30,496 bases of DNA, taken from assembly GCA_964613935.1 (NCBI GenBank), contig CAZTIX010000001.1:1-30496 (forward strand), given 5' to 3'. The DNA is from an uncultured archaeon (lineage in GTDB: Archaea > Altiarchaeota > Altiarchaeia > JAFGQM01). Position 1 is the first letter of the stretch, and each line of letters opens with the position of its first letter. Below, in pieces: positions 845 to 28,743 of this stretch. Both the position numbers and the translations under genes were made by a program. The notes under the pieces were generated by a model. That model ran no database searches. It worked only from the letters and a program-made list of their open reading frames with translations, and was not told the origin of the DNA.

Positions 845-1489
845 ATGCACAACACATTTCTCTTCGACATGGACGGAACCCTTGTAGACACCTTCGACCT
901 AATTCACGAATCGTTCAACGCCGCCCTCGCCGAGAACAAGAAGGGGCCCATTACCAAGGAGGACTTCGACAAGAAGCTTTTCGGGAAGCCGGTGGATTCG
1001 ACGGTGATGAGGCTCCTGCGGATATCCGACGACAGGGAGTACGGGAAGGTCGTGAGGGACTTCCGCACCCATTGGCTGCGCAACCTGCAAAAGGTCGAGG
1101 TTTTTAAGAATGTTCCTCTAACTTTAGAGCGGCTCAGGAAGAGGGGCCACAAGCTCGGGGTGGTTAGCACGTCGCCCCGCGGGGTGATATCCGAGACCCT
1201 TCGCCAGACGGGGATATACGACTACTTCGATGTCCTCATAGGAGAGGAGGACGCAAAGAGGAAGAAGCCCCATCAGGAGCCTGTGGTCAACGCGCTCAAG
1301 CTTCTGGGAGCGAAGCCGGAGGAGACGGTCTTCGTGGGCGACACGATATACGACGTGCAGGCGGGCAAGAGAGCGGGTTGCCACACGGTATTCCTTCTCA
1401 ACCCCTACAACGCCGGAGTCCTGGAGGAATCCGAGCCGGACAGAGTCATAAAAAACGTTTCCGAATTGCTGGAAAATGGCGGAACCTGA
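845..1489 (+). CDS. HAD-superfamily hydrolase (PpaX pyrophosphatase / phosphoglycolate phosphatase-like), 214 aa
   Basis: Motif I FDMDGTLVDT, motif II GVVST, motif III KKPHQEP and motif IV FVGDTIYDVQAG. It overlaps the aglB start by 14 nt. Confidence 0.92.
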   Translation: MHNTFLFDMDGTLVDTFDLIHESFNAALAENKKGPITKEDFDKKLFGKPVDSTVMRLLRISDDREYGKVVRDFRTHWLRNLQKVEVFKNVPLTLERLRKRGHKLGVVSTSPRGVISETLRQTGIYDYFDVLIGEEDAKRKKPHQEPVVNALKLLGAKPEETVFVGDTIYDVQAGKRAGCHTVFLLNPYNAGVLEESEPDRVIKNVSELLENGGT

Positions 1490-8238: not shown

Positions 8239-8304
8239 TTTCCTAGCCCAGAACCGCTTCAAACCGCCTCCTCGTTTCTTATGCGCGCATTTTCTAATAA
8301 GACC

Positions 8305-10598: not shown

Positions 10599-11713
10599 GA
10601 ATACTGGTAGTCACGTCCATCTTCCCGCCGGAGATAGGCGGGCCGGCCACATATGTGAAAGAGTTCGCCTCGCGGGCGAGAGACAGGGGCCACGAGGTCA
10701 GGATAGTGACCCTCTCGGACGCCAAGCCCGACGACCTTGAGGCCGTGGAGATAAGGTCCGTCAAGAGGGGCGGCAACAAGCTCCTGAGGCAGTCCGCCCT
10801 GCTGAAGCGGATAATGGAGTCGGCGAGGAAGTGCGACGTCATCTACGCCCAGAATCCTACGGCCATAGGGCTCCCTTCCGTCCTTGCCGGCAAGCTGCTG
10901 AGAAAGCCCGCGGTAATCAAATTCGTCGGAGACACCGCCTGGGAGAAGGCCTTCCGCGAAGGGAAGACAGAAAAGGGGCTGGAGGACTTCCTGAAGAAGC
11001 CGGACGCCAACAGGAAGATACTTCGCATAGAGCGCTCGGTCCTCAAGGGCGCCTCAAAGATAGTCACCCCCGGCCGGTTCTTGGCCAGAATCCTGAAAAA
11101 ATACCACAAGGTTCCCGGAGAGCGCATAGTGGTCATACCAAACGCCGTGGATGTGGGAAGCGTCAAGCCGAAGCCCCTCCGCCAGCGCGAGAACCGAATC
11201 ATAACCGTGGCCAGACTGGTGCCCTGGAAGGGCGTCCAGGACCTCATATCTGTCATGCCGGAGGTGCGCAAGGCGACTGGAGCCGAGCTCAGGATAGTGG
11301 GCGACGGCCCCTACAAAAGCGAGTTGGAGAAGCTGGCTTCCAAGGTCTCTCCCGACGGGGTTCGCTTCCTGGGCAGGCTTTCTCACGAGGAGGTCCTCCG
11401 GATAGTGGGCTCTTCAAAAGTATTCGCTCTGAACTCTCTTTACGAGGGGATGCCTCACGTTCTTCTGGAGGCCATGGCCCTGGGCACGCCGGTGGTCGCC
11501 ACAAACGTCTGCGGAAACCCGGAGCTGGTCGAGGACGGGAAGACGGGCGTCCTGGTGAAGCCGCGGGACAGGGGTTCTCTGAAGGATGCCCTGGTCAGCC
11601 TTCTACAAGACGAGAAGAAGCTGCGCTCCCTGTCCTCGGCTGCGAGGGATAAGGCCTCCGATTACAACTGGGAGTCTTTGATGTCCAGGACCCTGAAGGC
11701 CATCGGGCCCTAG
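10595..11713 (+). CDS. GT4 glycosyltransferase
   Basis: The start is placed at MRILVVT (ATGA overlap; the track ORF begins at 10544). Motifs: PPEIGGPATY, PNAVD, ARLVPWKG and EGMPHVLLEAM. Confidence 0.92.
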   Translation: MRILVVTSIFPPEIGGPATYVKEFASRARDRGHEVRIVTLSDAKPDDLEAVEIRSVKRGGNKLLRQSALLKRIMESARKCDVIYAQNPTAIGLPSVLAGKLLRKPAVIKFVGDTAWEKAFREGKTEKGLEDFLKKPDANRKILRIERSVLKGASKIVTPGRFLARILKKYHKVPGERIVVIPNAVDVGSVKPKPLRQRENRIITVARLVPWKGVQDLISVMPEVRKATGAELRIVGDGPYKSELEKLASKVSPDGVRFLGRLSHEEVLRIVGSSKVFALNSLYEGMPHVLLEAMALGTPVVATNVCGNPELVEDGKTGVLVKPRDRGSLKDALVSLLQDEKKLRSLSSAARDKASDYNWESLMSRTLKAIGP

Positions 11714-12639
11714 CCGCCCTTCATCTGTTCGACAAAGCGCTTCAGCCCCTCTTCTATACCTATCCTCGGCTTCCAGTCCAACTCTTTCGCGGCCTTGGAG
11801 ACGTCCGCGCGGGTGTGCTCCACGTCACCGGCCCTCTCGCCGGCGTGCACAATCCTGGAATCGCTGCCCGCAAGTCTCTTGATGCTTTCAGCCAGCTCCT
11901 CGATGCTGATTCGCCCGCCAGCCCCTATGTTGTAGGTGCCCCTCCCCTTCTTCATCAGGACGAGGTTTGCCCGAACGACGTCGTCTATGTGGGTGAAGTC
12001 CCGGGTCTTGTGGCCGTCGCCGAATATCTCCAGGGACCGGCCCTCGAGCGCGCGCCTTGCGAATATCGAGATGGCCAAATCGGGCCTCATTCGGGGGCCG
12101 TATACGGTGAAGTAGCGCAGGCTGGCCGTCTTCAGCCCGTAGACCTCCGAGAAGACGTTGCAGTAGTGCTCGGCAGCAAGCTTGGAGACGCCGTAAGGCG
12201 AGATGGGGCGGGTGGGATGCTTCTCATCAAAGGGCAGATACTCGATTTTGCCGTAGACGGAGGAAGAAGACGCGTTGATTACCTTTTTGACGCCGCAATC
12301 GGTCGCCGCCTTAAGGACGTTCAGCGTCCCCTCCACGTTGACCTCGTAGGGCTTTATAGGGTCTTCGACAGATATAGCGATTCCGGCCTGCGCGGCTTCA
12401 TGATAGACCAAATCCGCGTCTGCACAGAGTTCTTTGACCAGCTCGAAATTCCGGACATCCCCCTCGACCAGCTCAAAACCGCCTTCCGATTCCAGCCCCT
12501 TCGCGTTCTTCCTCTTGAGCTCCGGGTCGTAGTAGGGGTCGAAGTTGTCCAGGCAGACCACCGAGTGGCCCCTGCCGAGGAGCGCCTCGCAGATGTGACT
12601 GCCTATGAATCCGGCCCCGCCCGTCACAAGGATGCGCAT
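11710..12639 (-). CDS. NAD-dependent epimerase, UDP-glucuronate 4-epimerase-like, 309 aa
   Basis: TGGAGFIG, HEAAQAG, ASSSSVYG, YGVSK, RYFTVYGPRMRPDLA (GAE-like RPD[LM]A) and TRDFTH. Confidence 0.88.
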   Translation of the reverse strand: MRILVTGGAGFIGSHICEALLGRGHSVVCLDNFDPYYDPELKRKNAKGLESEGGFELVEGDVRNFELVKELCADADLVYHEAAQAGIAISVEDPIKPYEVNVEGTLNVLKAATDCGVKKVINASSSSVYGKIEYLPFDEKHPTRPISPYGVSKLAAEHYCNVFSEVYGLKTASLRYFTVYGPRMRPDLAISIFARRALEGRSLEIFGDGHKTRDFTHIDDVVRANLVLMKKGRGTYNIGAGGRISIEELAESIKRLAGSDSRIVHAGERAGDVEHTRADVSKAAKELDWKPRIGIEEGLKRFVEQMKGG

Positions 12640-12672
12640 ATTACCGCTTATTTGCCTTTTTCTTCACTTAAA

Positions 12673-12682
12673 TAAAATCCCG
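12673..12682 (-). promoter_or_regulatory. Putative BRE/TATA element (CGGGATTTTA) for the minus-strand epimerase
   Basis: Identical to 790-799. On the minus strand it continues as TTTTATTTAA, starting 38 nt upstream of the ATG at 12639. Confidence 0.45.
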
Positions 12683-12700
12683 CTAAAGATATCTGGCAGG

Positions 12701-13819
12701 ATGACCGCATATAGCAAAGGCAGGCTGAGGGTCCTCATGGTCAGCGGAGACTCTTCCCCTTTGGCCGACGAGAATTCATACTTCGCCAGGGTCCTCAGAG
12801 AACTTTCTGAATACTGGAGGATAGACGTCCTCTGCCCCCGGCGAAAGGGAGGAAAAGAGGCGCGCGTGGGCGACGTGAGAATCTTCTCCTCGATTGCCCC
12901 CAAGCCACTGTACATGCTGAACACTCTGCATCCGAAACTGAGGGGCAAGAGCTACGATCTGGTAGTCGCCCAGGATCCCGCCCTCTACGGCATGCTCGCG
13001 TGCAGAATAGCCCACAAGAAGACCACCAAGCTCATCTTCGAGCTGCACGGCTATTATCTTGACGACCCCCGCTGGCGGGCCGCAAGCTGGAAGAACCGCC
13101 TGCTCTCCTGGCTGGGTCGCAGGAACCTCGGCAAGGCGGATTTCATCCGCATTGTCAGCAAGGGCATAGCGGACATGCCGTCTCTCTCGAAGATTCCCGA
13201 ATCCAGGATACTCTACGTCCCCAGCAACTACGTGAACCTCGAAAAGTTCAAGCCGTCAAAAAAAGGGATGTTCGGCAAACCAACGGTGCTGTTCGTCGGA
13301 AGGCTGGTCCCCGGCAAGAGCCTGGAGACTCTCCTGGAGGCCTTCGGGGCCGTGCGCAGGGAGGCAGACGCCCAGCTCGTCATAGTCGGCAGGGGCCCGG
13401 AGGAGAAGCATCTCAGGAAGAGGGCTAGCGAGCTCGGCCTCTCCGAAAGCGTCCGCTTCCCGGGTTTCGTGCCCAACGAAGAGCTGCCCTCTTACTATTC
13501 TTCCGCCGAGCTCTTCGCCATGCCCTCACTCCACGAGGGCGGGCCCAGAGCGGTCTTCGAGGCGATGGCCTGCGGTACCCCGCCCGTCTCGACCCCTGTC
13601 GGCCAGGTCCCGGACGTGGTGGAGGACGGCGGGAGCGGCGTGGTGCTGAGCTCCTTCGAGCCCGGCCAGATGGCGGAGGCGCTGTCCGGCCTCCTTAAGG
13701 ACCAAAAGCGGCGGTCGAAGATGGGCCGGGCCGCTCGCAAGAGGGCGAGGGAGAAGTGCGAGTGGAGCAAGCTGATTCGCAACTACGCGAAGACTTACAT
13801 AAAGGCGGTGGGAAAATGA
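12701..13819 (+). CDS. GT4 glycosyltransferase
   Basis: The start is placed at ATG 12701; the track ORF at 12605 overlaps the divergent gene. Motifs: RVLMVSGD, AQDP, GRLVPGKS, EGGPRAVFEAM and TPVG. Confidence 0.9.
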   Translation: MTAYSKGRLRVLMVSGDSSPLADENSYFARVLRELSEYWRIDVLCPRRKGGKEARVGDVRIFSSIAPKPLYMLNTLHPKLRGKSYDLVVAQDPALYGMLACRIAHKKTTKLIFELHGYYLDDPRWRAASWKNRLLSWLGRRNLGKADFIRIVSKGIADMPSLSKIPESRILYVPSNYVNLEKFKPSKKGMFGKPTVLFVGRLVPGKSLETLLEAFGAVRREADAQLVIVGRGPEEKHLRKRASELGLSESVRFPGFVPNEELPSYYSSAELFAMPSLHEGGPRAVFEAMACGTPPVSTPVGQVPDVVEDGGSGVVLSSFEPGQMAEALSGLLKDQKRRSKMGRAARKRAREKCEWSKLIRNYAKTYIKAVGK

Positions 13820-14919
13820 GCGGGCCCAAATCAAGAAAAACGAACGTCCTGATGATAACCCAGAAGATGGACAAGGACGATGACATCCTGGGCTTCATGC
13901 ACAAGTGGGCGGAGAAGCTTGCGGAGCGCGTGGGAGAGCTGCACGTCACGGCCCTCTCCGTTGGGAGGCACGAGCTGCCCCCGAACGCGCATGTTCATTC
14001 TCTGGGGAAGGAGGAGGGGGCAGGCAAACTGAAGCGCCTTTTCAGGTTGTACTCCACGGCCCTCCGCCTCCTATCGCGCGGGAAAGCCGACGTTATCTTC
14101 GTGCACATGAACCAGATTTACGTCTTCTTGCTCTATCCGCTGGCCAAGCTCTTCGGCAAGCCGATTGTCCTTTGGAAGACTCATGGCAATCTGCCCTGGA
14201 GAGTCAGGGCCGCGGCCCGTCTCTGCGACGCGGTCGCCACGGCCTCCGAGGAGAGCTTCGCCGTCGAGACCTCCAAGCGGCGCGTGCTCGGCCACGGCAT
14301 AGACACCTCAGTTTTCAAGCCGCGCGGCAAGAAGAGAGGGAGCGGGGGGCCAGGCGAAGAGAAAACCATTCTCACGGCCGGCCGCATTTCTCCTGTGAAG
14401 GATTACGATTGCCTGACGGAAGCGATGGCCATTCTGGCCGGGAGAGAGGATGCGCCCAACCTCCGGCTGGACATAGCCGGCGGATCGGCCACTTCGGCCG
14501 ACAGGGAATATATGAAAGAGCTCCGCAAAAAGGTAGGAAAGCTGGAGCTGGATGAAAGGGTCAGGTTCTTAGGCTCGGTTCCCCATGCGGAAATGCCGGG
14601 ACTCTACCGGGGCTGCGACGCCTTCGTGAGCGCGAGCAGGACGGGCAGCATAGACAAGGCCGTTCTCGAGGCCATGGCCTGCGGCAGACCTGCTCTCACC
14701 TCCAACGATGCGTTCGGGCCGGTGCTGAAGGGTAGCGAAGAGCTGCTGATGTTCTCCGGCCCCGAGGACCTGGCCGTGAAGCTGGAGAGGGTTTTGAACC
14801 TCTCGCCCAAGGAGCGCGCCGAGCTCGGGAAGCGGCTGAGGGAGACGGTGGTGAAAGACCACAATCTGGATCGCCTGGCGAACCGCATTTGCGCGCTGTT
14901 CCGGGAGCTCTCTGGATGA
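13816..14919 (+). CDS. GT4 glycosyltransferase with a variant EX7E motif
   Basis: ATGA overlap start. Motifs: MITQKMDKDDDILGF, FVHMN, GHGID, GRISPVKD and TGSIDKAVLEAM. Confidence 0.9.
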   Translation: MSGPKSRKTNVLMITQKMDKDDDILGFMHKWAEKLAERVGELHVTALSVGRHELPPNAHVHSLGKEEGAGKLKRLFRLYSTALRLLSRGKADVIFVHMNQIYVFLLYPLAKLFGKPIVLWKTHGNLPWRVRAAARLCDAVATASEESFAVETSKRRVLGHGIDTSVFKPRGKKRGSGGPGEEKTILTAGRISPVKDYDCLTEAMAILAGREDAPNLRLDIAGGSATSADREYMKELRKKVGKLELDERVRFLGSVPHAEMPGLYRGCDAFVSASRTGSIDKAVLEAMACGRPALTSNDAFGPVLKGSEELLMFSGPEDLAVKLERVLNLSPKERAELGKRLRETVVKDHNLDRLANRICALFRELSG

Positions 14920-14979: not shown

Positions 14980-16410
14980 ATGAAGGTCTTTGTCATAGGT
15001 CTGGACGGATGCAACTGGGAGATTTTGGACAAGCTCATCAAAAAGGGAGACCTGCCGAACATAGCGCGCATAAAGAAGGAGGGAGCCCGGGGCAGTCTGG
15101 AGAGCTGCCTTCCGCCGGTGACGGCCCCCAACTGGAAGTGCTACTCGACCGGCAAGAACCCTGGCAAGCTGGGGGTCTTCTGGTGGGAGAGTATCGACTG
15201 CGCCAAGAAGAAGGTGAGCGTCCCCACGTCCTACTCCTTCAAGAGCGGGGAGATGTGGGACCGGATGAGCCGCGAGGGCAAGAGGGTCGCCGTCATCAAC
15301 ATGCCCACCACCTATCCGCCCAAGAGGATCAACGGCTTCATGATATCTGGAGGGCCGGACTCTCTAGAAAGCGGCTTCACCTATCCGAAAGAGCTCGAGG
15401 GCAGGCTAAAGAAGGAGTTCGGCTACCGCGCGCTGCCCAAGAGAGTCAGCCTCTTGGAGTCCGGCAACCGCGAGGTCATAGAGGAGGTTAGGGCGGCGAT
15501 AAGGACGAGGTTCGAGGTCGCCAAGGCCCTGCTGGCGGAGGCCGACTACGACTTCGCCCACCTGACCATCTATTTGATAAACGTGCTCCAGCACTTCTTC
15601 TGGGACGACGACTGCGTCAGGAAGGCCTGGAGGGACATAGACAGGGGCATAGGCGAGCTCATGGAGCAGTTCAAGGAAGCCGACTTCCTGTTCATGTCGG
15701 ACCACGGCTCCAACCGGATAAAGGTCAAGTTCAACATCAACACCTGGCTCGAGAAAGAAGGCTACCTGGCCCTCCGCAGCAAGCCGTCCAAGGGCCTCCT
15801 CCTGAGGCTGGGCCTGAACAAGGAGCGAGTGGTCCGGCTGCTCACCAGGCTGGGCCTGAAGGATTTCGCCAAGAGAGTCGTCGGCGGGCGGGCCAGCCTT
15901 CCCACCTCCGCGGGAGTCGTCCAGAGCGCCGGAAAGGAAGGGGCCGTAGACTGGGGGAAGACAAAGGTCGTCGCCAGCGGACAGGGACCCGTCTATTTGA
16001 ACATACCCAGGAAATCCCCGGAATACCGCCGGGTCAGGGACGAGATAATAGGAAAGCTAGAGAACCTCGAGCATCGGGGTATCAAAATCGCCAAGAAGGT
16101 CCACACGCGGGATGAGATATACTCGGGCCCATATCTCAAGAAGGCTCCCGACCTGATAATCGACCAGGGCGAGAACGTCCACATAACCGGCTCCCTGGGC
16201 TTTGAAAAGGTTTTCAGCAAACCCTCCAAATGGCGAGGCGAGAACTCCAAGTTCGGGGTGTTCATGGCCCGCGGACCCAGAATCAAGAAAGGCAAGGTCA
16301 AAAAGCCGCACATACTCGACCTGGCCCCCACCGCGCTCAAACTGATGGGCATGGAGCCGGGGAGAGGGTTGGACGGCAGAGCCTTGAATATAATCTCCTC
16401 GAGCAGCTGA
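14980..16410 (+). CDS. Alkaline phosphatase superfamily protein (nucleotide pyrophosphatase/phosphodiesterase-like), 476 aa
   Basis: IGLDG, PPVTAPNWKCYSTGKNPG (predicted nucleophile Thr48), DVLQH-like INVLQHFFW, SDHG, APDL and a C-terminal HILDLAPT. No signal peptide. Confidence 0.88.
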   Translation: MKVFVIGLDGCNWEILDKLIKKGDLPNIARIKKEGARGSLESCLPPVTAPNWKCYSTGKNPGKLGVFWWESIDCAKKKVSVPTSYSFKSGEMWDRMSREGKRVAVINMPTTYPPKRINGFMISGGPDSLESGFTYPKELEGRLKKEFGYRALPKRVSLLESGNREVIEEVRAAIRTRFEVAKALLAEADYDFAHLTIYLINVLQHFFWDDDCVRKAWRDIDRGIGELMEQFKEADFLFMSDHGSNRIKVKFNINTWLEKEGYLALRSKPSKGLLLRLGLNKERVVRLLTRLGLKDFAKRVVGGRASLPTSAGVVQSAGKEGAVDWGKTKVVASGQGPVYLNIPRKSPEYRRVRDEIIGKLENLEHRGIKIAKKVHTRDEIYSGPYLKKAPDLIIDQGENVHITGSLGFEKVFSKPSKWRGENSKFGVFMARGPRIKKGKVKKPHILDLAPTALKLMGMEPGRGLDGRALNIISSSS

Positions 16411-16466: not shown

Positions 16467-17258
16467 ATGGACCTCAAAAAATCGCTCAGGCACGCCATGT
16501 TGGCTCTAATGCACGCCACGGGTATGCATCGCCTCTCTCGGAGCGACAGGAAAGGACTACTAGTCCTGGCCTTCCACAAGGTCCCCGACAGGGACGCTTT
16601 CGAGCGGAAGATGCTGATACTGAAGGAGCTCTGCGACATTGCGAGCGTTGGGGATTTCCTGGAGGGGAAGCTCGACCCGGAGCGCCTGAGCGCCGCCGTG
16701 ACCTTCGACGACGGCTTCGCCAGCGTGGCCGAGAACGCCCTTCCCGTTTTGAAGAAGCACTCGATGCCCGCCGTAATATTCCTCACCTCTGGTTTTCTGG
16801 ACTCGAGGGACAAGGGCCGCTTCTGCAGGGAGAATCTCGGGGTGCGGCCGGCCGAAAGCATGACGTGGGAACAGGCAAGGACGGTGAGCGAGGATTTTGA
16901 ATTGGGCGGCCACGGCCGGGGCCATGTGGATTTAGCTTCACTCTCTCCGGCGGACGCCTTGAAAGAGATTGCCGAGGACAGAGAGCGAATAAAGAAGAAG
17001 ACCGGCAAGAAGCCCCGCTATTTCGCCTACCCGCTCGGGGGTGCGAAAAACATAAGTGAGACGGCCAGAAAAGCGGCCGAGAGGGCAGGATATGAGGCCG
17101 CCTTCACCATACTCCCCGGAGTCAACCAGAAGGGCACCGACCGCTTCCTGCTGCGCCGCATATCGGTCGACCCCGGGATGTCCGACACCGCCTTCAAGTC
17201 CGCCGTCCTCGGCAACTACCGAAGGCTGAAAGCGGCCAAGGACGCTCTTGCAAGATGA
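16467..17258 (+). CDS. Polysaccharide deacetylase (CE4/NodB-like), 263 aa
   Basis: LAFHKV, VTFDDG, IFL, MTW, GGHGRGH (metal His pair), FAYPLG and LRRI. Confidence 0.88.
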   Translation: MDLKKSLRHAMLALMHATGMHRLSRSDRKGLLVLAFHKVPDRDAFERKMLILKELCDIASVGDFLEGKLDPERLSAAVTFDDGFASVAENALPVLKKHSMPAVIFLTSGFLDSRDKGRFCRENLGVRPAESMTWEQARTVSEDFELGGHGRGHVDLASLSPADALKEIAEDRERIKKKTGKKPRYFAYPLGGAKNISETARKAAERAGYEAAFTILPGVNQKGTDRFLLRRISVDPGMSDTAFKSAVLGNYRRLKAAKDALAR

Positions 17259-18595
17259 AGCCCCGACCCAACATCCTCTGGATAGTCATGGACGCGGCCA
17301 GGGCGGACCACCTCTCCTGCATGGGCCATTCCAGGAAAACCACGCCCAACGTCGACGCCTTGGCCGAGGAGGGCCTGCTCTTCGAGAACGCCTTCTCCAC
17401 CTCCGACTGGACTCCACCGAGCCACGCCTCCATGCTCACCGGCAAGCTGCCCTGCCGCCACGGCGTCTACGACAAGACGCGCTTCGACCAAATAAGAGAC
17501 AAGACCGTCGGCGAGCGCCTGCCTCCCGAGTACGAGAGCCTGTTCATCGACTCGATGCCACATCTCAGGGGCATCGGAGCCGACCGGGGCTTCAAGAAGA
17601 GGGTGTCCACGACCCTTGACGCGTCTCCCGGACAGCCCCTCTACTGGCAATCGCTCATGAGGGAAGTCCTGGGATTGGACAGTTGGGAGACCTTCTACAA
17701 AGCGGAGACCATAAAATCGTTCGCAGGCGGCGCGCTATCCAGGAAAAAGCCGTTCTTCGTGTTCGCGAACTTCGATGATGCCCACTTCCCCTACGACCCT
17801 CCAAGGAGGTTCGAGAGATTCACAGCCCCGGGCATGGATGGCGATGCGATGAGTAAACTGGCCGGCCGCAAAAGCCTTCTGCGAAATGTAGCTGAGAAGG
17901 TGACCGGCAGGCGAAAATCCGGCCTCCGGCAGACGCTCAGTCGAAAGAGCAAAGATCTCACATCAAAGGAAAAAGAGATTCTAAAGGCCCTCTATGACAG
18001 CGAGCTGCTTTATCTGGACAATGCGATCGGCAAGCTTGTCAATTTCTTGAAATCCAGAGGAATCTACGACAGCACGCTAATCATAATAACCTCGGACCAC
18101 GGAGAGCTCTTCGGCGAGCACGGCAGGGTAATGCACGGCCGGGGGAAGAGCCACAGCCTCTACTCCGCGGTTACGCGCGTGCCCTTGGTTATGAGAGGGC
18201 CGGGAGTCCCACGCAAGAGGGTCGCGGCTATGGTCTCTCTGGCCGACCTCGCCCCGACCGTCTGCTCGCTCCTGGGAATCGGATGCGGGAAGAGGCTTGA
18301 CGGAGTCCCGCTGGTCCCCCCTCGCCGCGAGTATCATGAGCATGTCGTCTCCGAGGCGGAGGGCGTGAAGAGCATAAGGACGAAGACCCGCCACCTCATC
18401 CGGTCGGAGGAGGGGGTTGAGCTCTACGACGTCCCGAAGGACCCCGAAGAGAGGAAAGACATATCGAAGACCGAGAAGAGGACTGCGAAGTCGCTTCTCG
18501 CCCACCTCTCGAAAAAAACCAAGCTCGGCCCCCGCCAGTCGCTGAGAAGCAAGATAACCCGCCTGAAGAAGTCGGGTCGCCCGGGCGGCTCCTGA
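17255..18595 (+). CDS. Sulfatase-like hydrolase/transferase (AP superfamily) lacking the formylglycine motif, 446 aa
   Basis: PNILWIVMDAARADH, TPNVD, WTPPSHASMLTG (Thr in place of C/SxPxR), DAHFPY, LYDSELLYLD, TSDHGE, VPLVM and ELYD. Confidence 0.9.
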   Translation: MKPRPNILWIVMDAARADHLSCMGHSRKTTPNVDALAEEGLLFENAFSTSDWTPPSHASMLTGKLPCRHGVYDKTRFDQIRDKTVGERLPPEYESLFIDSMPHLRGIGADRGFKKRVSTTLDASPGQPLYWQSLMREVLGLDSWETFYKAETIKSFAGGALSRKKPFFVFANFDDAHFPYDPPRRFERFTAPGMDGDAMSKLAGRKSLLRNVAEKVTGRRKSGLRQTLSRKSKDLTSKEKEILKALYDSELLYLDNAIGKLVNFLKSRGIYDSTLIIITSDHGELFGEHGRVMHGRGKSHSLYSAVTRVPLVMRGPGVPRKRVAAMVSLADLAPTVCSLLGIGCGKRLDGVPLVPPRREYHEHVVSEAEGVKSIRTKTRHLIRSEEGVELYDVPKDPEERKDISKTEKRTAKSLLAHLSKKTKLGPRQSLRSKITRLKKSGRPGGS

Positions 18596-18637: not shown

Positions 18638-18835
18638 ATGGCGGAAATAAATCTCGATTTGCCGGAAGACCTCCTCAAGAAGCTGGAGAAGAGCGCCAAG
18701 GATGCCGACTTCGATTCGGTCGAAGCCTACCTAAAGTACGTTCTGGAAGAGCTCGTGTCCGACGAAGCGGAAGTCAGCGAGGAGGACGAGAAGAAAATAA
18801 AGGAGCGCCTTGCGGACCTGGGCTACATGGACTGA
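18638..18835 (+). CDS. Small acidic ribbon-helix-helix (CopG-like) protein with a C-terminal ERLADLGYMD tail, 65 aa
   Basis: MAEINLDLPEDLLKKLEKSAKDADFDSVEAYLKYVLEELV has a strand-helix-turn-helix pattern and is a clear paralogue of 22483-22698. Start is AAA-ATG at 18638. Confidence 0.8.
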   Translation: MAEINLDLPEDLLKKLEKSAKDADFDSVEAYLKYVLEELVSDEAEVSEEDEKKIKERLADLGYMD

Positions 18836-18841
18836 TTGGCC

Positions 18842-19777
18842 ATGCCCAGTGAAGTCCCTTACTTAGTCGAAGGCGCTGAGAGGAAGTTAGCCGGAGAGGA
18901 CTGGGACGTTCTCATAATCCTAGATGCCTGCAGGTACGACTTCTTCAAACGCCTCTATTCAGAACACATAGGCGCAGAGCTCGGAAGGGCCGTCTCTCCA
19001 GCCACGTGCACCATGGAGTGGCTCAGCAAGGTTTTTCCCGGCCAGTACAAAGACACGGTTTACATATCCGCCAATCCCTACATAAACTCCAAGAAGGCCA
19101 GCAGAGACCGTCGCGGACACGTATATGACGGAAAGAAGCACTTCTTCAAGGTCATCGACTCCTGGCTGACCGGGTGGGACGATGCCATAAAGTCAGTGCC
19201 CCCGGAGAGGGTCACCGCCGCCTTCAGGAAGGCCCGTTTGAAATATCCCAAAAAGCGGATTGTCCTCCACTACATCCAGCCCCATTTCCCCTACATAGGC
19301 GAGTCCCATAGGCGCTATCTCGCAGGAGTCTCAAAAGAATCCATCCAACATCATTCCCTGCCTCCGAAAACATCGGAGAGGAGGAATACATCTAAAAAGG
19401 ACTTGCTTGCACCACTCAAGAAGCGCGCAATCAGCCTCATATTCCGATTCTTCGGCACAGCCGGCGTCTGGAGGACAGTGACCTTCCTCCACCCGAACCG
19501 CCGCGTCTCGCAGCAAGTCAAGATATACCTGAGCGAGGGCTGGGAGGGAATCAGAAAGGCTTACGAGGAGAACCTCAGAATCGTCCTGAAAGAGGCGTTC
19601 CGGGTTGCGAGCAGGAACGACCTCAACATCCTGATAACCTCCGACCACGGCGAGCTTTTGGGCGAGCACGGGTTGTTCGGGCATCGAGTTAACTCGCGAA
19701 AGCGAGAGAACACGGAGGTTCCCTGGCTTGTTATGAGAAAAGGCCCTCATGAAGAAAGCAGCAGGGCTGGCGATTAA
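18842..19777 (+). CDS. AP-superfamily (sulfatase-like) protein of the type found in archaeal glycosylation clusters
   Basis: LIILDACRYD, SPATCTMEW, SANP, HYIQPHFPY, ITSDHGELLGEHGLFGH and VPW. The start is placed at ATG 18842 (the track uses TTG 18836). Confidence 0.85.
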   Translation: MPSEVPYLVEGAERKLAGEDWDVLIILDACRYDFFKRLYSEHIGAELGRAVSPATCTMEWLSKVFPGQYKDTVYISANPYINSKKASRDRRGHVYDGKKHFFKVIDSWLTGWDDAIKSVPPERVTAAFRKARLKYPKKRIVLHYIQPHFPYIGESHRRYLAGVSKESIQHHSLPPKTSERRNTSKKDLLAPLKKRAISLIFRFFGTAGVWRTVTFLHPNRRVSQQVKIYLSEGWEGIRKAYEENLRIVLKEAFRVASRNDLNILITSDHGELLGEHGLFGHRVNSRKRENTEVPWLVMRKGPHEESSRAGD

Positions 19778-22482: not shown

Positions 22483-22698
22483 ATGACTGAAAAAGTCACC
22501 CTGAAAATTCCAAAGAACCTCTACAGGAAACTCAAGAGGCGGATAAGCGGCACTGGATTCAGCTCCGTCACGGAATTCGTTGTTTTTGTGATGAGGTCGG
22601 TTGCCTCCGCCCAGGCGGTTGAAGGCAGAGAGGACCTGACCGAAGAGGAAATAAGTCTGGTGCGAGAGAGGCTCAGACGCCTCGGCTACCTTGATTAA
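22483..22698 (+). CDS. Ribbon-helix-helix (CopG-family) protein with a C-terminal ERLRRLGYLD tail, 71 aa
   Basis: Strand KVTLKIP, helix KNLYRKLKRRI, turn GTGFSS and helix VTEFVVFVMR, then an acidic EEE linker and the LxxLGY tail. Confidence 0.85.
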   Translation: MTEKVTLKIPKNLYRKLKRRISGTGFSSVTEFVVFVMRSVASAQAVEGREDLTEEEISLVRERLRRLGYLD

Positions 22699-22742
22699 GA
22701 TTGACCCAAATGGAACCTGAGCTAGGGAAGCACTGCGTGGGC

Positions 22743-23540
22743 ATGAGCCATCTGGATGAGCTGGAGAGCAAGAGCGTCTTCATAATCCGGGAGGCCTACA
22801 AGCAGTTCAAGAACATAGCGATGCTGTGGTCCATCGGAAAGGATTCCAGCTGCCTCCTCTGGCTAGTCAGAAAGGCCTTCTACGGCCGCATACCCTTTCC
22901 TGTCATACACATAGACACCGGCTACCAGATACCCAAGATGATAGAATGGCGCGACAAGTACGCCAAGAAGTGGAACCTCAACCTGATAATCTCCCAGAAC
23001 AAGGAGGCCCTGGAGCGAGGCATGAACAACAAGAGCAAGCTGGCCTGCTGCACGGCTCTCAAGACCGACGCCCTGAAGCAGACGTTGGACGAGCACAAAT
23101 TTAGAGCTCTGCTGCTGGGAATCCGAAGGGACGAGCACGGTGTTAGGGCGAAGGAGAGGGTCTTCTCCCCCCGCAATCAGGACTTCAAGTGGGACTACAA
23201 GAACCAACCCCCCGAGCTCTGGGACCAGTACAAGGCCAAGGCCGAGGAGAAGGAGCACATCAGGGTCCACCCCCTCCTGCACTGGACCGAGGTCGACGTC
23301 TGGGAGTACATAAAGCGTGAGAGCATACCCCTCATACCCCTTTACTTCGCCAAGGACGGGAAGCGCTACCGGAGCCTGGGATGCGAGTGTTGCTGCGCCC
23401 CGGTGGACTCGGACGCAGACACAATCGACAAGGTCATAGGCGAGCTGAAGATGACTCGCCAGGGCGAGAGGGACGGCCGGGCCCAGGACAAGGAGGAGGC
23501 GAACGCAATGCAGAAGCTGAGGGCACTGGGCTACATGTGA
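22743..23540 (+). CDS. cysD: Sulfate adenylyltransferase subunit 2 (ATP sulfurylase small subunit)
   Basis: LDELESKSVFIIREA, PP-loop WSIGKDS, HIDTG, GIRRDE...RAKER, RVHPLLHWTE, RYRSLGC, ERDGRAQD and terminal LRALGYM. The start may instead be ATG 22710. Confidence 0.95.
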   Translation: MSHLDELESKSVFIIREAYKQFKNIAMLWSIGKDSSCLLWLVRKAFYGRIPFPVIHIDTGYQIPKMIEWRDKYAKKWNLNLIISQNKEALERGMNNKSKLACCTALKTDALKQTLDEHKFRALLLGIRRDEHGVRAKERVFSPRNQDFKWDYKNQPPELWDQYKAKAEEKEHIRVHPLLHWTEVDVWEYIKRESIPLIPLYFAKDGKRYRSLGCECCCAPVDSDADTIDKVIGELKMTRQGERDGRAQDKEEANAMQKLRALGYM

Positions 23541-23550
23541 CAAGCTAAAA

Positions 23551-24783
23551 ATGGAGGCAAGCGAGGAGTATCTTAGGCTGGTAATCGTAGGGCACGTGGA
23601 CCACGGGAAGTCGACGCTGATAGGCCGGCTTCTCTACGATACCGGCTCGCTTCCAGAGGGCAAGATAGAGGAGATAAAGAGCATCTGCAACGCCCTGGGC
23701 AAGGAGCTGGAGTTCGGCTATGTCATGGACAACCTAGAGGAGGAAAGAGACCAGAGCGTGACCATCGACACCGCCCAGATATTCTTCAAGACTGACAAGC
23801 GCCACTATGTGATAATCGACGCCCCCGGCCACGTGGAGTTTGTCAAGAACATGGTGACGGGCGCGTCCCAGGCCGAGGCGGCCGTCCTCATAGTTGACGC
23901 CGAGGAGGGGGTTCAGGAGCAGACCCGGCGCCATGCCTACATCCTCGGCATGCTCGGCCTGAAGCAGGTCGCGGTCGTGGTTAACAAGATGGACCTGGTC
24001 GGCTACTCCGAGGAGCGGTTCGACGAGGTTTCAAAGGACCTCAGGCAATTTCTGGGGAAAATAGGCATAGACCCCACCTACGTAATCCCCATATCCGCTC
24101 GCGAGGGCGATTTCGTGGCGGGGAAGACCGGCAGCATGCCCTGGCACGACGGCCCCACTGTCTTGGAGGCGCTCGATTCCTTCAAGCCTCGCGAGCCCCG
24201 CATGAGCAAGCCGCTGAGGTTCTCGGCGCAGGACGTCTACAAGCGGGACAAGCGGATAATCGTGGGCCGCGTGGAGAGCGGGACGCTCCGAAAGGGGGAG
24301 GAAGTCCTGGTGCTTCCTTCCGGAGAGAAGACCTCCGTCAGGAGCATCGAGGAGTGGCTCAAGGACGACGTCAGGGAGGCGGTGGCCGGCAAGGCCACGG
24401 GCCTCACTACCGAGGACAAGCTCTTCATAGACCGGGGCGACGTGCTGTGCGACCCCAAGAAACCGCCCACAGTGACCGACCGGTTTGAGGCGCAGCTTTT
24501 CTGGATGGACAAGGCCCCTCTGAAGAAGGGGGAGAGGATAATACTGAAATGCTCCACCCAGAAGGCCGTGTGCGAGGTCGAGGAGTTCAAGAGAGTGCTG
24601 GACTCCTCCACCCTGCGGGAGCTGGAGGGCAAAGAAGAGCTGGGCAACCGGGAGGTGGCCGATGCGGTGATAAAGACCGACAAGCCCATAGTCATCGAGG
24701 ATTTCAACAAGACGGAGGAGCTGGGCCGGTTCGTCCTGGAGCGGCTCAACACCTGCGCGGGGGGGATAATAACCGGAGCATGA
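23551..24783 (+). CDS. cysN: Sulfate adenylyltransferase subunit 1 (EF-Tu-like GTPase) without a fused APS-kinase domain, 410 aa
   Basis: GHVDHGKSTLIGRLLYDT, EERDQSVTID, DAPGH, MVTGASQA, QTRRH, NKMD, PISA and a terminal GRFVL...AGGII. It directly follows cysD. Confidence 0.95.
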   Translation: MEASEEYLRLVIVGHVDHGKSTLIGRLLYDTGSLPEGKIEEIKSICNALGKELEFGYVMDNLEEERDQSVTIDTAQIFFKTDKRHYVIIDAPGHVEFVKNMVTGASQAEAAVLIVDAEEGVQEQTRRHAYILGMLGLKQVAVVVNKMDLVGYSEERFDEVSKDLRQFLGKIGIDPTYVIPISAREGDFVAGKTGSMPWHDGPTVLEALDSFKPREPRMSKPLRFSAQDVYKRDKRIIVGRVESGTLRKGEEVLVLPSGEKTSVRSIEEWLKDDVREAVAGKATGLTTEDKLFIDRGDVLCDPKKPPTVTDRFEAQLFWMDKAPLKKGERIILKCSTQKAVCEVEEFKRVLDSSTLRELEGKEELGNREVADAVIKTDKPIVIEDFNKTEELGRFVLERLNTCAGGIITGA

Positions 24784-24811
24784 CGCCGGAGACAAGCGGG
24801 GTTGGTTCAAA

Positions 24812-25534
24812 ATGATCGCCGTCTACGCCATAGACGCCCTGGAGTTCAACAGGGTCGAGAAGTACGACACCAAGAATCTCAAGCAGGAGCACTACGGCAA
24901 GACCGACATAAGCGAGTTCTCCCAACCGCGCACCATGGTCCTTTGGAGCTCCTTCATGACCGGGGAGAACAAGGAGAAGGAGATTCTGGCCAAGGGCGAC
25001 AAGGAGATGTGGAACACCCGGATACCCCTTGAGAAGACCTTCTTCTCGCAGTTCGACAGCCCGAAAATCCTGGACCTGCCCGGCTACAACTACGACCTGG
25101 GGGTCCACGAGAAGTCCAGGAAACTGCTCAAGTCGTTCTTCGATGCGAAGAGCGACGCGGAGAAGGAGCGCATAAGAAAGGAGTACAACAAGGACGCCTT
25201 CGAGCACCACAAAACGGTCAGGAAGCGCTTCCTCGGGGCGCTCGGAGAGGACCGCGATTTCGTCCTGGGCTATTTCAGCGTTGCCGACGTGGTGGGACAC
25301 CTCAACTTCGGCAACGACCTGATGATGAAGATGATATACCGGGAGCTGGACGAGCTGGCGGCGAAGGTCAGGGAAACGGCCGACCGCGTCTTGGTTCTGT
25401 CGGACCACGGTATGAAGGCCATCGGCAGATTCGGCGACCATTCCGGATACGGCTTCTGGAGCACGAACTGGGATGCGGGGCTGGACAGCCCCAGAATTAC
25501 CGACATGAAGGACTCGATACTCGCATTGAAATAG
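24812..25534 (+). CDS. Minimal AP-superfamily protein (core fold only), 240 aa
   Basis: AIDALE, QPRTMVLWSSFMTG (predicted nucleophile Thr41), ADVVGH, LSDHG and GDHS. Confidence 0.8.
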   Translation: MIAVYAIDALEFNRVEKYDTKNLKQEHYGKTDISEFSQPRTMVLWSSFMTGENKEKEILAKGDKEMWNTRIPLEKTFFSQFDSPKILDLPGYNYDLGVHEKSRKLLKSFFDAKSDAEKERIRKEYNKDAFEHHKTVRKRFLGALGEDRDFVLGYFSVADVVGHLNFGNDLMMKMIYRELDELAAKVRETADRVLVLSDHGMKAIGRFGDHSGYGFWSTNWDAGLDSPRITDMKDSILALK

Positions 25535-25536
25535 CC

Positions 25537-26232
25537 ATGAGTCTTGAGAGAGTTAAGAGCGCCTACCGGGAGACCTATGAATCCAGAGGCCTGGACGACA
25601 TCGAGAAGAGAATAGATTCTCGCATAAAGCGCAAAAGGAGCAGACGCGCACTTTTCATCTTGCGGGAGCGCCTGGAGAATCTGGAGGAAAAAAAGGTCCT
25701 CGCGGTGGGCTGCGGAAAGGGAGAGCTCATAGTGACTTTCGGTCTCGAGGACATAGACATTTGCGGCGTCACGCCAGACCGGGGCGAGATAGAGGTGGCC
25801 GAATCCTGGCAGAGCCACTATGGACTGGAGAACAGGGCGGTTGAGGGGCGCGGAGAAGACCTCCCCTTTCCCGACGAATCCTTCGACTTGGTGATAGCCC
25901 ATGACGTCCTCGAGCACGTCCAGGACATGGAGAAGACGGTCAGCGAGATGGCCAGGGTGGCTAAAAGGGGCGGACACCTCTACATCCGGGCTCCCAACTA
26001 CCGGAAGCCCAGGGAGGGCCATTACGATCTGTTCTGGATTCCATTCATGCCGAAAGCGCTCGGCCGGCTCTACCTGCGTCTTTTGGGCAGGCCTACCTGT
26101 TTCCTGAACACAATCCACTACACCTCTCCCGGGAAAGTCCGGAAGAGCCTGGAAAAGCACGATTTAACAGTCTTTCCTCTAAATAAAGCGGGGTTTTTCT
26201 CACCCATCGAGCTGCTAGCCAGGAAGGACTGA
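25537..26232 (+). CDS. Class I SAM-dependent methyltransferase, 231 aa
   Basis: VLAVGCGKG, GEDLPFPDESFDLV, DVLEHV, RVAKRGG and PN...EGHY. Confidence 0.88.
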   Translation: MSLERVKSAYRETYESRGLDDIEKRIDSRIKRKRSRRALFILRERLENLEEKKVLAVGCGKGELIVTFGLEDIDICGVTPDRGEIEVAESWQSHYGLENRAVEGRGEDLPFPDESFDLVIAHDVLEHVQDMEKTVSEMARVAKRGGHLYIRAPNYRKPREGHYDLFWIPFMPKALGRLYLRLLGRPTCFLNTIHYTSPGKVRKSLEKHDLTVFPLNKAGFFSPIELLARKD

Positions 26233-26234: not shown

Positions 26235-27368
26235 ATGAAGCTGCTGTATGCCGCATATTCCCGCCTCCCTAGCAGGCGGGCGAATTCCATCCAGGTTGCC
26301 AGCACCTGCGACGCCCTCGCTCAGGCGGGCCATGACGTCACGCTCCTGCTGCCCAACCGGGGAAGCAACAGGAAATCGACGAGCAAAGGCATACGCAAGT
26401 ACTACAGACTGCGGGAACGCTTCGAGATAAAGCGGCTTCCCGTCCTAGACGTCCGCTTCCTGCACGATGCCGGCCTGCTGAAGCCCTGGTTTCTCATAGC
26501 CCACCTATCATTCACCCTCTCCTTTCTCAATTTCATTCGCGGGAGAGCGAGCCGCTATGACGCCGTCTACACGCGCCACGCCCCGACCGCCCTCATGTAC
26601 GGGAAGCTCAGGCGACTCTTTCCGCTCCTCCCAATCATCTTCGAGGCCCACAGATATGGTACCCTCAATGCCCTGGCGGCCGAGTGGGTGGACGGCGTTG
26701 TGGCGACCACCGGCAACGCGGCCTCGCTCTTCGCCTCCAAGTGCGGATGTCCGGTCGAGACCGTGCCTAACGGCATCCGCCTGGAGGATTTCGACATCGA
26801 CGAGTCCAAGGCATCCGCCAGAAAGAAGCTTGGGCTTTCTAAAAAGGCGGGCATAGCCCTCTACACCGGCAAACCCTACGGCTGGAAGGGCGTGGAAGTC
26901 CTGGAGGAAGCGGCCAAGCGCCTCCCCTCCGGCTCTATGGTCCTCTTCGTCGGGCCCGAGAAGAAGGGAGGGAAGTCCGGGCCCGGTAAGAAGCGCTATG
27001 CCGGCTACGTCCCCCACAAGGACATACCTCTCTACCTGAAGGCCGCCGACGTCCTGGTGCTCCCCAACGCCCCGCAAGGCGAATCAAGGCTCTTCACCTC
27101 TCCTCTCAAGATGTTCGAGTACATGGCCTCCAAGCGCCCCATCGTCGCATCCGATCTCAAGTCCATACGGGAGATTCTCTCGGAAGACGAGTGCTTCTTC
27201 GCCAAGGCCGGAGACCCGGACTCGCTGGCAAGCGCCATGACCAAGGCCCTCCATAGCCCCAAAGAGGCCGGCAGGAGGGCCGAAAAGGCTTATCTAAAGG
27301 CGCGCGATAACTATACTTGGAGCAAAAGAGCCGAGAAGATAGGCGAATTCATCGGAGGCGCAATCTGA
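26235..27368 (+). CDS. GT4 glycosyltransferase, 377 aa
   Basis: ANSIQV, FEAH, PNGI, YTG...WKG, GYVPH, ADVLVLP and TSPLKMFEYMAS. Confidence 0.92.
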   Translation: MKLLYAAYSRLPSRRANSIQVASTCDALAQAGHDVTLLLPNRGSNRKSTSKGIRKYYRLRERFEIKRLPVLDVRFLHDAGLLKPWFLIAHLSFTLSFLNFIRGRASRYDAVYTRHAPTALMYGKLRRLFPLLPIIFEAHRYGTLNALAAEWVDGVVATTGNAASLFASKCGCPVETVPNGIRLEDFDIDESKASARKKLGLSKKAGIALYTGKPYGWKGVEVLEEAAKRLPSGSMVLFVGPEKKGGKSGPGKKRYAGYVPHKDIPLYLKAADVLVLPNAPQGESRLFTSPLKMFEYMASKRPIVASDLKSIREILSEDECFFAKAGDPDSLASAMTKALHSPKEAGRRAEKAYLKARDNYTWSKRAEKIGEFIGGAI

Positions 27369-27369: not shown

Positions 27370-28743
27370 ATGGCGACTTTCCTGAGGAGGGCATCATCCG
27401 GGCTGGCTTACGTGTCGGGAGGCAATCTCCTGGGGGCAGTCATCTCGTTTCTGGTGACCGTAACGCTCGCTCAGGCCTTGGGAGTGAAGGACTACGGCCT
27501 GATGCTGCTGGCCCTGTCCATCCCCTCGGCCATGGTGGTTTTCACCGAGTGGGGCCTGAGTAGCCTGCTCTCTGCGGATATAGCCGCCTACCGGCCGAAA
27601 GGCGAGCTGTCCAAAATAAAGAAACTCCTCAAGCAGACCCTCTTCATCAAGGTGGCAATCTCCCTTTCGCTGATGGCTCTGCTCTTCCTGATAAGCGACA
27701 GCGTAATCCCTCAGTTCTACAGCGCGCGCGTTTCCAGCCTGGTGAAGATAGTGGCCCTGATGCTGCCCCTCAACGTGCTCGAGGAGCAGCTGAGGGTGAT
27801 ATTCATAGGGTTTTCCAAGTTCAATGGCATAGCTTGGATGCGTATCTTCCAGCCCATCTTCCGGCTCTCCCTGCTAATTTTGTTCCTCCAAATGGCCACA
27901 CTCGACCTCATCACCGCAACACTCCTCTACCCACTTTCCCTTCTATTGTCCTCCCTATTGGTAATTCCGCTCCTGATAGGCGTTTTTCGAAAGCTGCGGA
28001 GCGTCGCATCCTCGAAGGAAAACGTGCTTAAGGAGACCATAAAGGAGCACGGGAAATATGCGATTATGATAGTCCCCGTCAAGAAGGGCATAGACAACCT
28101 GCCCCTATGGCTAGCCGGCTTCTTACTGGGTGCCCCCGCCGCGGCTTTGTTCGGCCTGGCCAACAAGTTCTACGGATTCATATCCCTGGCGGTGAAATCC
28201 ATCGAGCAAGTCTTCCTGCCTCTGATGGCCGAGCAGACTGTGAAGGGCATACAGCGCCTGGTCCTCCTCTTTAAGAAGGGACTCAAGTTCGGCTTTTTGC
28301 TCTCCCTGGTCGCGGTGGCGGCGTCCATCCCGCTTCTACCCGTTGTGATAGAAGGCCTCTCCCTCGACAAGTACGTGGCCGCAATACCCATAGCCCAAGT
28401 CCTAATGCTGAACATGATAAGGTGGTTCTCTTTCATGACGGTCAGGCCTATACTCGTGTCGACAAAGAACCAGAAATACCTGTTCCTGTTTTATCTCTCG
28501 AAGCTTGCGATACTTTCCTCTTTTGGCTATGTCTTCCTAATGCTCATGGGCCACCCGATAGGGCTTGCCTGGGCCACCATCCTTACAGGAATACTCCTGA
28601 CCGTAATACATTATTGGATACTTTTGAAAATAGACAAAGCATTCGCCGTGAACATTCGCCGCGACCTTCTGACGATAGACGAAAAGGACAAGAGCATATA
28701 CCGGCGGTCCATGAAGCAAATCAGGGCGCGGCTAGGATTCTAG
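27370..28743 (+). CDS. Wzx/AglR-like oligosaccharide flippase (polysaccharide biosynthesis family), 457 aa
   Basis: About 12 hydrophobic segments, [11 protein letters not shown] near the N-terminus, and a mid-protein D...L...L...ALFGLA pattern typical of Wzx/MOP exporters. Confidence 0.85.

Follow-up and report, generated by a model that had tools for sequence, protein, structure and literature searches.

A 30,496-nucleotide stretch of DNA from an uncultured archaeon of the Altiarchaeota (GenBank assembly GCA_964613935.1, contig CAZTIX010000001.1; "the window" below means this whole stretch) is an archaeal surface-glycan (N-glycan) cluster with the oligosaccharyltransferase gene aglB as its anchor. 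It contains the gene pair cysD-cysN, whose products are, by homology, the two subunits of an ATP sulfurylase that makes adenosine 5'-phosphosulfate (APS) from sulfate, ATP and GTP. We propose, at a probability of roughly 0.55, that the cluster carries its own sulfation system, which is fed by APS and bypasses 3'-phosphoadenosine 5'-phosphosulfate (PAPS). Homology further indicates that the locus serves the assembly and flipping of a lipid-linked glycan and that it encodes four cytoplasmic enzymes of alkaline phosphatase (AP) fold with a threonine nucleophile, here called AP1 to AP4, the last of them encoded directly 3' of cysN. Comparative genomics supports well a use of the sulfurylase that is biosynthetic rather than assimilatory and independent of PAPS; that APS itself is the sulfuryl donor is what we infer from the arrangement and distribution of the genes.

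An ATP sulfurylase pair within a glycan operon

The 25 open reading frames (ORFs) of the window were scanned against Pfam, and NCBIfam models were also applied. CysD scores 362.7 bits against the NCBIfam CysD subfamily model NF003587 (cut-off 195) and aligns from end to end with Pseudomonas syringae CysD (1ZUN_A), terminal GY included; its own C-terminus reads ...MQKLRALGYM. The gene starts at the ATG at 22743 (MSHLDELES), to judge from homologues, whose first residues are MDHLDELE; the TTG start at 22701 arose from the ORF listing. CysN is composed of a GTP_EFTU domain, domain 2 and a C-terminal domain, with no Pfam domain beyond these. It scores 361.9 bits against TIGR02034 (cut-off 336.1) and its G1-G4 motifs are intact, with GHVDHGKS, DAPGH and NKMD visible. 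Both subunits fall under equivalog cut-offs (NF009214, NF003478), CysD also under that of TIGR02039. When CysN was searched against PDB sequences it matched archaeal EF1A at 285 bits and P. syringae CysN at 272 bits, and sequence comparison places its clade between EF1A and bacterial CysN. A separate housekeeping EF1A, 40% identical to CysN, is encoded on another contig (C57) of the same metagenome-assembled genome (MAG), and cysN is therefore a dedicated paralogue.

From 22483 to 28743 on the + strand the genes run in the order small ORF, cysD, cysN, AP4, methyltransferase, GT1-fold glycosyltransferase (GT) and flippase, separated by gaps of 44, 10, 28, 2, 2 and 1 nt, which suggests a single operon (Table 1). 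An earlier reading of this DNA, made from its letters and predicted ORFs (the sequence-only reading), had placed cysD-cysN at 22743-24783, had described the pair as co-oriented and tightly packed with an AP enzyme, a methyltransferase, a GT and the flippase, and had noted that CysN ends at AGGIITGA with no CysC (APS kinase) domain. The coordinates are borne out, the gaps of 1-28 nt agree with the tight packing, and both the sequence and the Pfam scan confirm the end of CysN. The same reading had recognized a glycosylation locus with one AP enzyme; the locus is indeed one of glycosylation, and the AP genes number four. It had overlooked the small conserved ORF just 5' of cysD and the aglB-cluster nature of the window as a whole.

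AP4, the gene directly 3' of cysN

AP4 belongs to a family for which a database search returned 571 homologues, nearly all of them about 240 aa long and annotated as "hypothetical" or "alkaline phosphatase family protein". When PDB sequences were searched with an AP4 profile, only marginal similarity to NPP7 emerged, so that a fold search was needed to place it. The best PDB folds found by Foldseek for its AlphaFold2 model (pLDDT 96.5, with T41 at the start of helix 41-50) were the nucleotide pyrophosphatases/phosphodiesterases (NPPs) NPP1 and NPP3 and a snake-venom phosphodiesterase, at probability 1.00, E about 3e-5, TM about 0.45-0.5 and 11-16% identity, several of them with AMP. Residues D8, T41, D159, H163, D198, H199 and H210 are invariant in an alignment of 35 sequences, and by this alignment they make up the full two-metal site and the Thr nucleophile of the NPPs.

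Between archaeal phyla AP4 is 56-73% identical, as compared with 60-83% for CysD and 54-74% for CysN; homologues of AP1-AP3 reach only 24-31% in the same comparison. As AP4 is conserved to about the same degree as CysD and CysN, it is probably a core part of the activation machinery and not a glycan-specific tailoring enzyme.

The module in archaea and bacteria

The CysN query returned 80 loci, and neighbours were counted wherever a locus spanned 12 kb or more. Of the archaeal loci, 17 of 19 have an AP gene immediately 3' of cysN, as do 31 of 37 of the bacterial ones. The archaeal form is the 240-aa AP4 and the bacterial form a 425-aa protein of the Phosphodiest family, the two being related over the catalytic core (hhalign probability 89.7%). 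AP4 is carried by Methanoperedens and other Halobacteriota, Hadarchaeota, Methanomassiliicoccales, Bathyarchaeota and Altiarchaeales, and by DPANN archaea of Woese-, Pace-, Aenigm- and Diapherotrites-type, the module being present also in genomes of 0.6-0.8 Mb. The 425-aa form is carried by Planctomycetota, Omnitrophota and relatives, where it is often the sole AP gene of the locus.

Genes inserted between cysD and cysN were considered as hidden kinases and rejected: they encode TauE/TSUP permeases, an ABC transporter (L039), or a HIT protein and a DUF2061 protein (L025), and no kinase was found among the inserts of the cysD-cysN loci examined. The TauE/TSUP (TauE/SafE) permease, of about 275 aa, occurs in many loci (L007-L012, L014, L018, L024, L029, L037, L043, L061 and L106) and may be a sulfate importer. 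ORFs between cysN and the AP gene encode an HTH-nucleotidyltransferase or belong to no family. A MAG labelled Methanothrix harundinacea has the order small protein, cysD, TauE, cysN, AP4, small protein, sulfatase-like protein, flippase. Stand-alone units of small protein, cysD, cysN and AP4 are found in Hadarchaeota, Methanomassiliicoccales and Methanoperedens (L016, L017, L006, L022); these have no glycan genes within about 5 kb, and AP4 is the sole candidate APS consumer within about 10 kb.

Two variant loci, L097 from a genome of the same family (G046) and L094 (G062), have CysD beside an AP1-like Phosphodiest protein, with CysN not adjacent.

Distribution of PAPS synthesis and sulfate reduction

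The sequence-only reading had found no cysC, cysH, sulfite reductase or P-loop sulfotransferase in the window, and the Pfam scan of the 25 ORFs likewise detects none. The search was then widened to the host MAG (906 kb in 163 contigs, 63% complete) and, since that genome is incomplete, to its relatives. APS kinase (PF01583) is absent from the MAG; a 17.5-bit match on contig C136 was rejected, being the signal recognition particle receptor FtsY. No full-length APS kinase occurs in any of eight genomes of the family (63-87% complete), and the closest five MAGs with the module, G001-G004 and that of the window, yielded none. CysD is the sole PF01507 match both in the MAG and in a same-genus relative, an "uncultured archaeon" MAG (G042) that is 80% complete and has the same locus, so that neither shows a CysH-type APS/PAPS reductase (AprAB was not searched for). 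For sulfite reductase (NIR_SIR) the MAG gives only an 18-bit fragment, below cut-off, and 11 of 13 further genomes tested, including G041, G042 and G001-G004, have no match above cut-off.

Module-bearing genomes at large give a similar picture. APS kinase is missing from 32 of 40, which is the count of cysDN+AP loci lacking cysC that the sequence-only reading had called for, and CysD is the sole PAPS_reduct member in 23 of the 40. The Planctomycetota chromosome CP070728, a single contig of 2.27 Mb, contains the module and neither APS kinase nor a CysH-type reductase. With no APS kinase or reductase in many module genomes, the AP enzyme next door is the only visible fate of APS there. The earlier interpretation is thus supported in part. 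That the pair serves biosynthetic sulfation and not assimilation is well supported by the absence of reductase and sulfite reductase from the MAG and the same-genus genome and by the 23 of 40 module genomes. Its companion suggestion, that APS is the donor, fares less uniformly: independence from PAPS is well supported by comparative genomics, and the use of APS itself remains an inference.

AP1-AP3 and a C-terminal tail shared with CysD

The genes for AP1, AP2 and AP3 are located among GT genes, 10-15 kb 3' of aglB, and all AP genes of the MAG are found inside the window. The C/SxPxR formylglycine motif is absent from all four AP proteins; at the position aligned to the sulfatase C-x-P-x-R, AP2 reads W-T-P-P-S-H, and many of its 120 closest database homologues carry a T/S-x-P-S-H-A-S nucleophile motif. 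AP2 also has weak matches to EptA and LtaS. By inspection AP1-AP3 have no evident signal peptide. In the aglB cluster of Halobacterium salinarum, the AP-superfamily, sulfatase-like proteins Agl30 (VNG1056C) and Agl31 (VNG1057C) have been shown, by deletion and by expression in Haloferax, to sulfate an N-linked tetrasaccharide (Zaretsky et al. 2025, PMC11980604). By analogy we regard AP1-AP3 as candidate position-specific glycan sulfotransferases.

A further connection between CysD and AP-fold proteins comes from their C-termini. All 74 CysD proteins of the clade end in ...MQKLR(A/S)LGYM, and the alignment with P. syringae CysD extends to the ...KKRQGY at the end of that protein. A tail of this kind is found in the loci on the 74 CysD proteins, on about 50 small proteins, where it reads (K/R)L(K/R)xLGY(I/L/M)(D/E), and on at least 17 accessory sulfatase- or Phosphodiest-like AP proteins. 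The small proteins are a family of about 70 aa, assigned to no Pfam family, resembling ribbon-helix-helix (RHH) proteins and ending (K/R)ERL(K/R)xLGY(L/I/M)(D/E); 21 of 24 archaeal loci have one immediately 5' of cysD, often with a second copy after AP4. Of the 120 database proteins most similar to AP2, 51 likewise end in the tail, most of these having the T/S-x-P-S-H-A-S motif, and loci with tail-bearing Thr/Ser-type sulfatase-like proteins include L002, L013, L034, L038, L047, L063, L076 and L079. Among the 6896 ORFs of at least 60 aa in the window's MAG the tail occurs in three, CysD and the two small proteins, all in the window. A fusion of an RHH-like domain to AP proteins was considered and rejected, as only the tail of about 25 residues is common to both.

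The shared tail suggests that the proteins bearing it may have a docking site in common. CysN is its likeliest location and the simplest candidate, because CysD binds CysN. By docking there, AP-fold enzymes would be placed where APS is made, and handover could take place within a complex.

One haloarchaeon offers a candidate bridge to Agl30 and Agl31. The genome of Ca. Halobonum tyrrellensis encodes a tail-bearing Thr-type sulfatase-like protein and, in locus L105, tandem CysD-like genes (9701-10669 and 10836-11843) whose products are 25% identical to CysD of the window and both end ...RLRDLGYM. CysN is not encoded within 20 kb of this pair, and the genome lacks APS kinase. Sulfate activation in haloarchaea may rely on two CysD-like proteins together with another GTPase.

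Proposed route of sulfate and its alternatives

In the route that we favour, CysD and CysN would make APS from sulfate, ATP and GTP, and this APS would be neither phosphorylated to PAPS nor reduced, because the lineage lacks the kinase and the reductase (within the completeness of the MAG, and in many module genomes). AP4, encoded right after cysN and with nearest solved relatives that bind AMP-type nucleotides, would then consume the APS: its Thr41 would take the sulfuryl group and release AMP, and the group would pass either directly to a conserved acceptor or to acceptor-specific enzymes. AP1, AP2 and AP3, cytoplasmic and of Thr type, could act as position-specific sulfotransferases on the lipid-linked glycan, as Agl30 and Agl31 do in Halobacterium, with the C-terminal ...RLxxLGY-hydrophobic peptide presumably organizing the complex in which APS is handed over. 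The methyltransferase, GT and flippase would finish and export the glycan.

More broadly, Thr-nucleophile AP-fold proteins may form a second, PAPS-independent and widespread class of sulfotransferases that use APS directly and are recruited to CysN by the ...RLxxLGY tail, as a mimic of CysD. Such a class would comprise the AP4 family, its 425-aa bacterial counterpart and the "sulfatase-like" T/S-x-P-S-H proteins of archaea, Planctomycetota, Omnitrophota and related bacteria. We put this wider proposal forward tentatively, as possible but somewhat against the odds.

Several observations weigh against the favoured route. The use of APS by an AP-fold enzyme has no biochemical precedent, and the sulfate donor of Agl30 and Agl31 is nowhere mentioned in the paper that describes them (PMC11980604). 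AP1-AP3 of the window do not carry the tail motif. Several genomes carry the trio by itself and at a distance from glycan genes, so the acceptor need not be a glycan. The usual target of NPPs is phosphorus and not sulfur, and by that rule AP4 would hydrolyse APS. This last point leads to the strongest of the alternatives, which we nevertheless judge unlikely: APS would still be the donor, AP4 would assist CysDN as a hydrolase or regulate it, and AP1-AP3 or their equivalents would take sulfate from APS directly. AP4 could, for example, draw the unfavourable sulfurylase reaction forward, or proofread it, as a pyrophosphatase or as an enzyme that processes APS or AMP. That its nearest folds are phosphorus-attacking nucleotide pyrophosphatases would fit this role, as would the stand-alone trios and a conservation like that of CysD and CysN, expected of an enzyme acting on universal metabolites and not on variable glycans. 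A hydrolase that destroys APS beside the enzyme that makes it would, however, be futile, the stand-alone trios offer no other candidate consumer of APS, and the bacterial 425-aa form is often the only AP protein of its locus.

Ordinary PAPS-dependent sulfation, with an APS kinase either of an unrecognised type or encoded in the missing 37% of the MAG, and with PAPS used by the AP proteins or by a classical sulfotransferase, we consider quite improbable. It draws on the following points. The MAG being 63% complete, absences from it alone are weak. A full-length APS kinase is present in 8 of the 40 module genomes, seven Methanoperedens-like and one of the Altiarchaeales, which shows that module and PAPS synthesis are compatible within one genome. 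Contig C3 of the MAG encodes, among GT genes, a classical P-loop sulfotransferase of 192 aa (10453-11031); it matches Sulfotransfer_3 (PF13469) at 42.8 bits, and both the P-loop GRSGTK (5'-PSB) and the 3'-phosphate-binding motif RNPIDTISS are intact. Against this, C3 has a GC content of 46% compared with 58.6 ± 3.4% for the MAG, a phage SU10-adaptor-domain protein is encoded at 11908-12645, and no homologue of the sulfotransferase was found in 30 relatives, on which grounds the contig is possibly viral or mis-binned; nor does a full-length APS kinase appear in the eight family genomes, the five closest module MAGs or the single-contig chromosome (G032). For the sequence-only reading this means that its expectation for the whole genome held for cysC, cysH and sulfite reductase, none being above cut-off, and not strictly for the Sulfotransfer families, given the protein on the doubtful contig. 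Its phrase "without classical sulfotransferase" is right for the window and has to allow for the one on C3; the AP-fold proteins are themselves probably sulfotransferases, by the precedent of Agl30 and Agl31 (PMC11980604).

The AP-fold proteins might instead be phosphoryl or phosphodiester transferases, or hydrolases, acting on the glycan or its lipid carrier and unrelated to sulfate, with APS used elsewhere. The Phosphodiest and Sulfatase families of Pfam do include Thr-nucleophile phosphoethanolamine and phosphoglycerol transferases, in line with the weak EptA and LtaS matches of AP2. We think this very improbable, as it leaves unexplained both the near-obligate adjacency of cysN and the AP gene in two domains of life and the CysD-like tail on sulfatase-like proteins, and it ignores the published sulfotransferase role of the AP-fold Agl30 and Agl31 (PMC11980604). 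The least probable explanation, and one to which we give hardly any weight, is that cysDN works in assimilatory sulfate reduction, its place in the glycan cluster being accidental. Archaeal CysDN, as in ANME archaea and Methanoperedens, has been read as assimilatory (Yu et al. 2018, PMC6286981), and those Methanoperedens genomes that contain the module encode CysC, CysH-like proteins and sulfite reductases as well. Neither the MAG nor its same-genus relative, however, yielded a CysH-type reductase or a sulfite reductase (AprAB, again, being outside the search), cysDN is operonic with AP4, methyltransferase, GT and flippase, and the module, with its conserved AP adjacency, persists in DPANN-size genomes.

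Relation to known systems

Like the CysDN and CysDNC enzymes of Escherichia coli, P. syringae (1ZUN) and Mycobacterium tuberculosis, the pair described here consists of a PP-loop CysD and an EF-Tu-like CysN GTPase encoded side by side and probably co-translated. It differs in that the window has no CysC, fused or separate, an AP-fold gene following cysN in place of the kinase, and in that its subunits score under the equivalog cut-offs, with CysN equally close to archaeal EF1A and to 1ZUN_B. Rhizobial NodP and NodQ are a second, biosynthetic copy of the cysDN type that lies in a glycoconjugate-modification locus and serves the sulfation of Nod factors. NodQ carries an APS kinase, however, and NodH is a P-loop PAPS sulfotransferase; the window locus has neither, and APS kinase was not found in its lineage (the eight family genomes). 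The likeness to Agl30 and Agl31 is one of family and context and not of sequence comparison, AP1-AP3 being AP-superfamily, sulfatase-like proteins in an aglB-anchored cluster; the Halobacterium cluster has not been reported to hold cysDN or an AP4-like gene. Compared with CysDNC, NodPQ/NodH and Agl30/Agl31, the present system differs as a variant, and it would represent a new enzyme class if direct use of APS is correctly deduced.

The individual enzymes can be set against three further groups. AP4 shares its two-metal site and Thr nucleophile with the NPPs (ENPP1, ENPP3 and snake-venom phosphodiesterase), but is a stripped 240-aa core, cytoplasmic and tied to cysDN; NPPs hydrolyse, attacking phosphorus, whereas sulfuryl transfer is proposed for AP4. 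AP2 matches Pfam Sulfatase (144.9 bits) as the type I (formylglycine) sulfatases do, but has Thr-Pro-Pro-Ser-His in place of Cys/Ser-x-Pro-x-Arg, and inspection reveals no signal peptide. The bacterial arylsulfate sulfotransferases (ASST) are comparable as the only established PAPS-independent class: a 2024 review of polysaccharide sulfotransferases recognizes only PAPS enzymes and this aryl-sulfate class (PMC11625862). They differ in being periplasmic beta-propeller proteins that use phenolic sulfate esters as donors and have no link to ATP sulfurylase. Our literature searches returned no paper on an AP-fold sulfotransferase that uses APS or is linked to cysDN.

For the sulfation of sugars, lipids and proteins, PAPS is regarded as the universal donor; in the present system, across many archaeal and several bacterial phyla, a sulfate-activating pair is tied to an enzyme of phosphatase fold and not to the kinase that forms PAPS. 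If APS is used directly, the AP-fold proteins would be a new enzyme class in a cheaper pathway, which saves one ATP and leaves no PAP by-product, and a donor would be named for the AP-fold sulfotransferases recently shown in Halobacterium. Genes annotated as "cysDN" in anaerobic archaea and DPANN would then stand for surface sulfation and not for sulfur assimilation, thousands of cytoplasmic "sulfatase" annotations would become probable transferases, and simple PAPS-free enzymes would be available for making sulfated glycans.

The surrounding glycan cluster

Features of the window are collected in Table 1. Its GC content is about 59% overall. AglB scores 110 bits against TIGR04154 (archaeo_STT3), under the cut-off of the model. 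By Pfam and NCBIfam the window as a whole encodes three NAD-dependent epimerases/dehydratases and six GT1-fold GTs, and further a polysaccharide deacetylase and a nucleotidyltransferase.

Table 1. Genes of the aglB-anchored cluster and of the cysDN operon, with positions in the window.
Feature	Position	Strand	Evidence
AglB oligosaccharyltransferase, STT3 family, cluster anchor	1476..5021	+	PF02516, 64.1 bits
Glycan assembly genes: GT4 AglH-like phosphosugar transferase, two epimerases/dehydratases, UDP-glucose dehydrogenase, five GT1 glycosyltransferases	5058..14919		
AP1, 476-aa Phosphodiest-family AP-fold protein, Thr nucleophile (PPVT48APNW)	14980..16410	+	PF01663, 126.9 bits
AP2, 446-aa sulfatase-family protein, Thr53-Pro-Pro-Ser-His replacing Cys-x-Pro-x-Arg	17255..18595	+	PF00884, 144.9 bits
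Second small RHH-like protein, ending ...KERLADLGYMD	18638..18835	+	weak CopG_antitoxin match
AP3, divergent AP-fold protein of about 311 aa (SDHGE; Thr in ATCT57MEW)	18842..19777	+	weak PF00884, 19.6 bits
Fusion of Fer4, FrhB/FdhB-like and polysaccharide pyruvyl transferase, 811 aa	19795..22230	-	Pfam scan
Small 71-aa RHH-like protein, ending ...RERLRRLGYLD, directly 5' of cysD	22483..22698	+	no Pfam match
cysD, catalytic subunit of heterodimeric ATP sulfurylase	22743..23540	+	PF01507, 154.6 bits
cysN, GTPase subunit, short form, 410 aa, without APS-kinase domain	23551..24783	+	TIGR02034
AP4, 240-aa minimal NPP-like AP-fold enzyme, Thr41 nucleophile	24812..25534	+	PF01663, 31.7 bits (cut-off 23)
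Class I S-adenosylmethionine-dependent methyltransferase	25537..26232	+	Methyltransf_11, 75.2 bits
GT4-family (GT1-fold) glycosyltransferase	26235..27368	+	Pfam scan
Wzx-type oligosaccharide flippase	27370..28743	+	Polysacc_synt, 54.9 bits

The pyruvyl transferase fusion has two 4Fe-4S motifs and diverges from the cysD operon, and the GC content of its stretch is 0.49-0.51, as compared with about 0.60 in the flanks. Besides sulfate and methyl groups, the glycan may also receive pyruvate by way of this protein.

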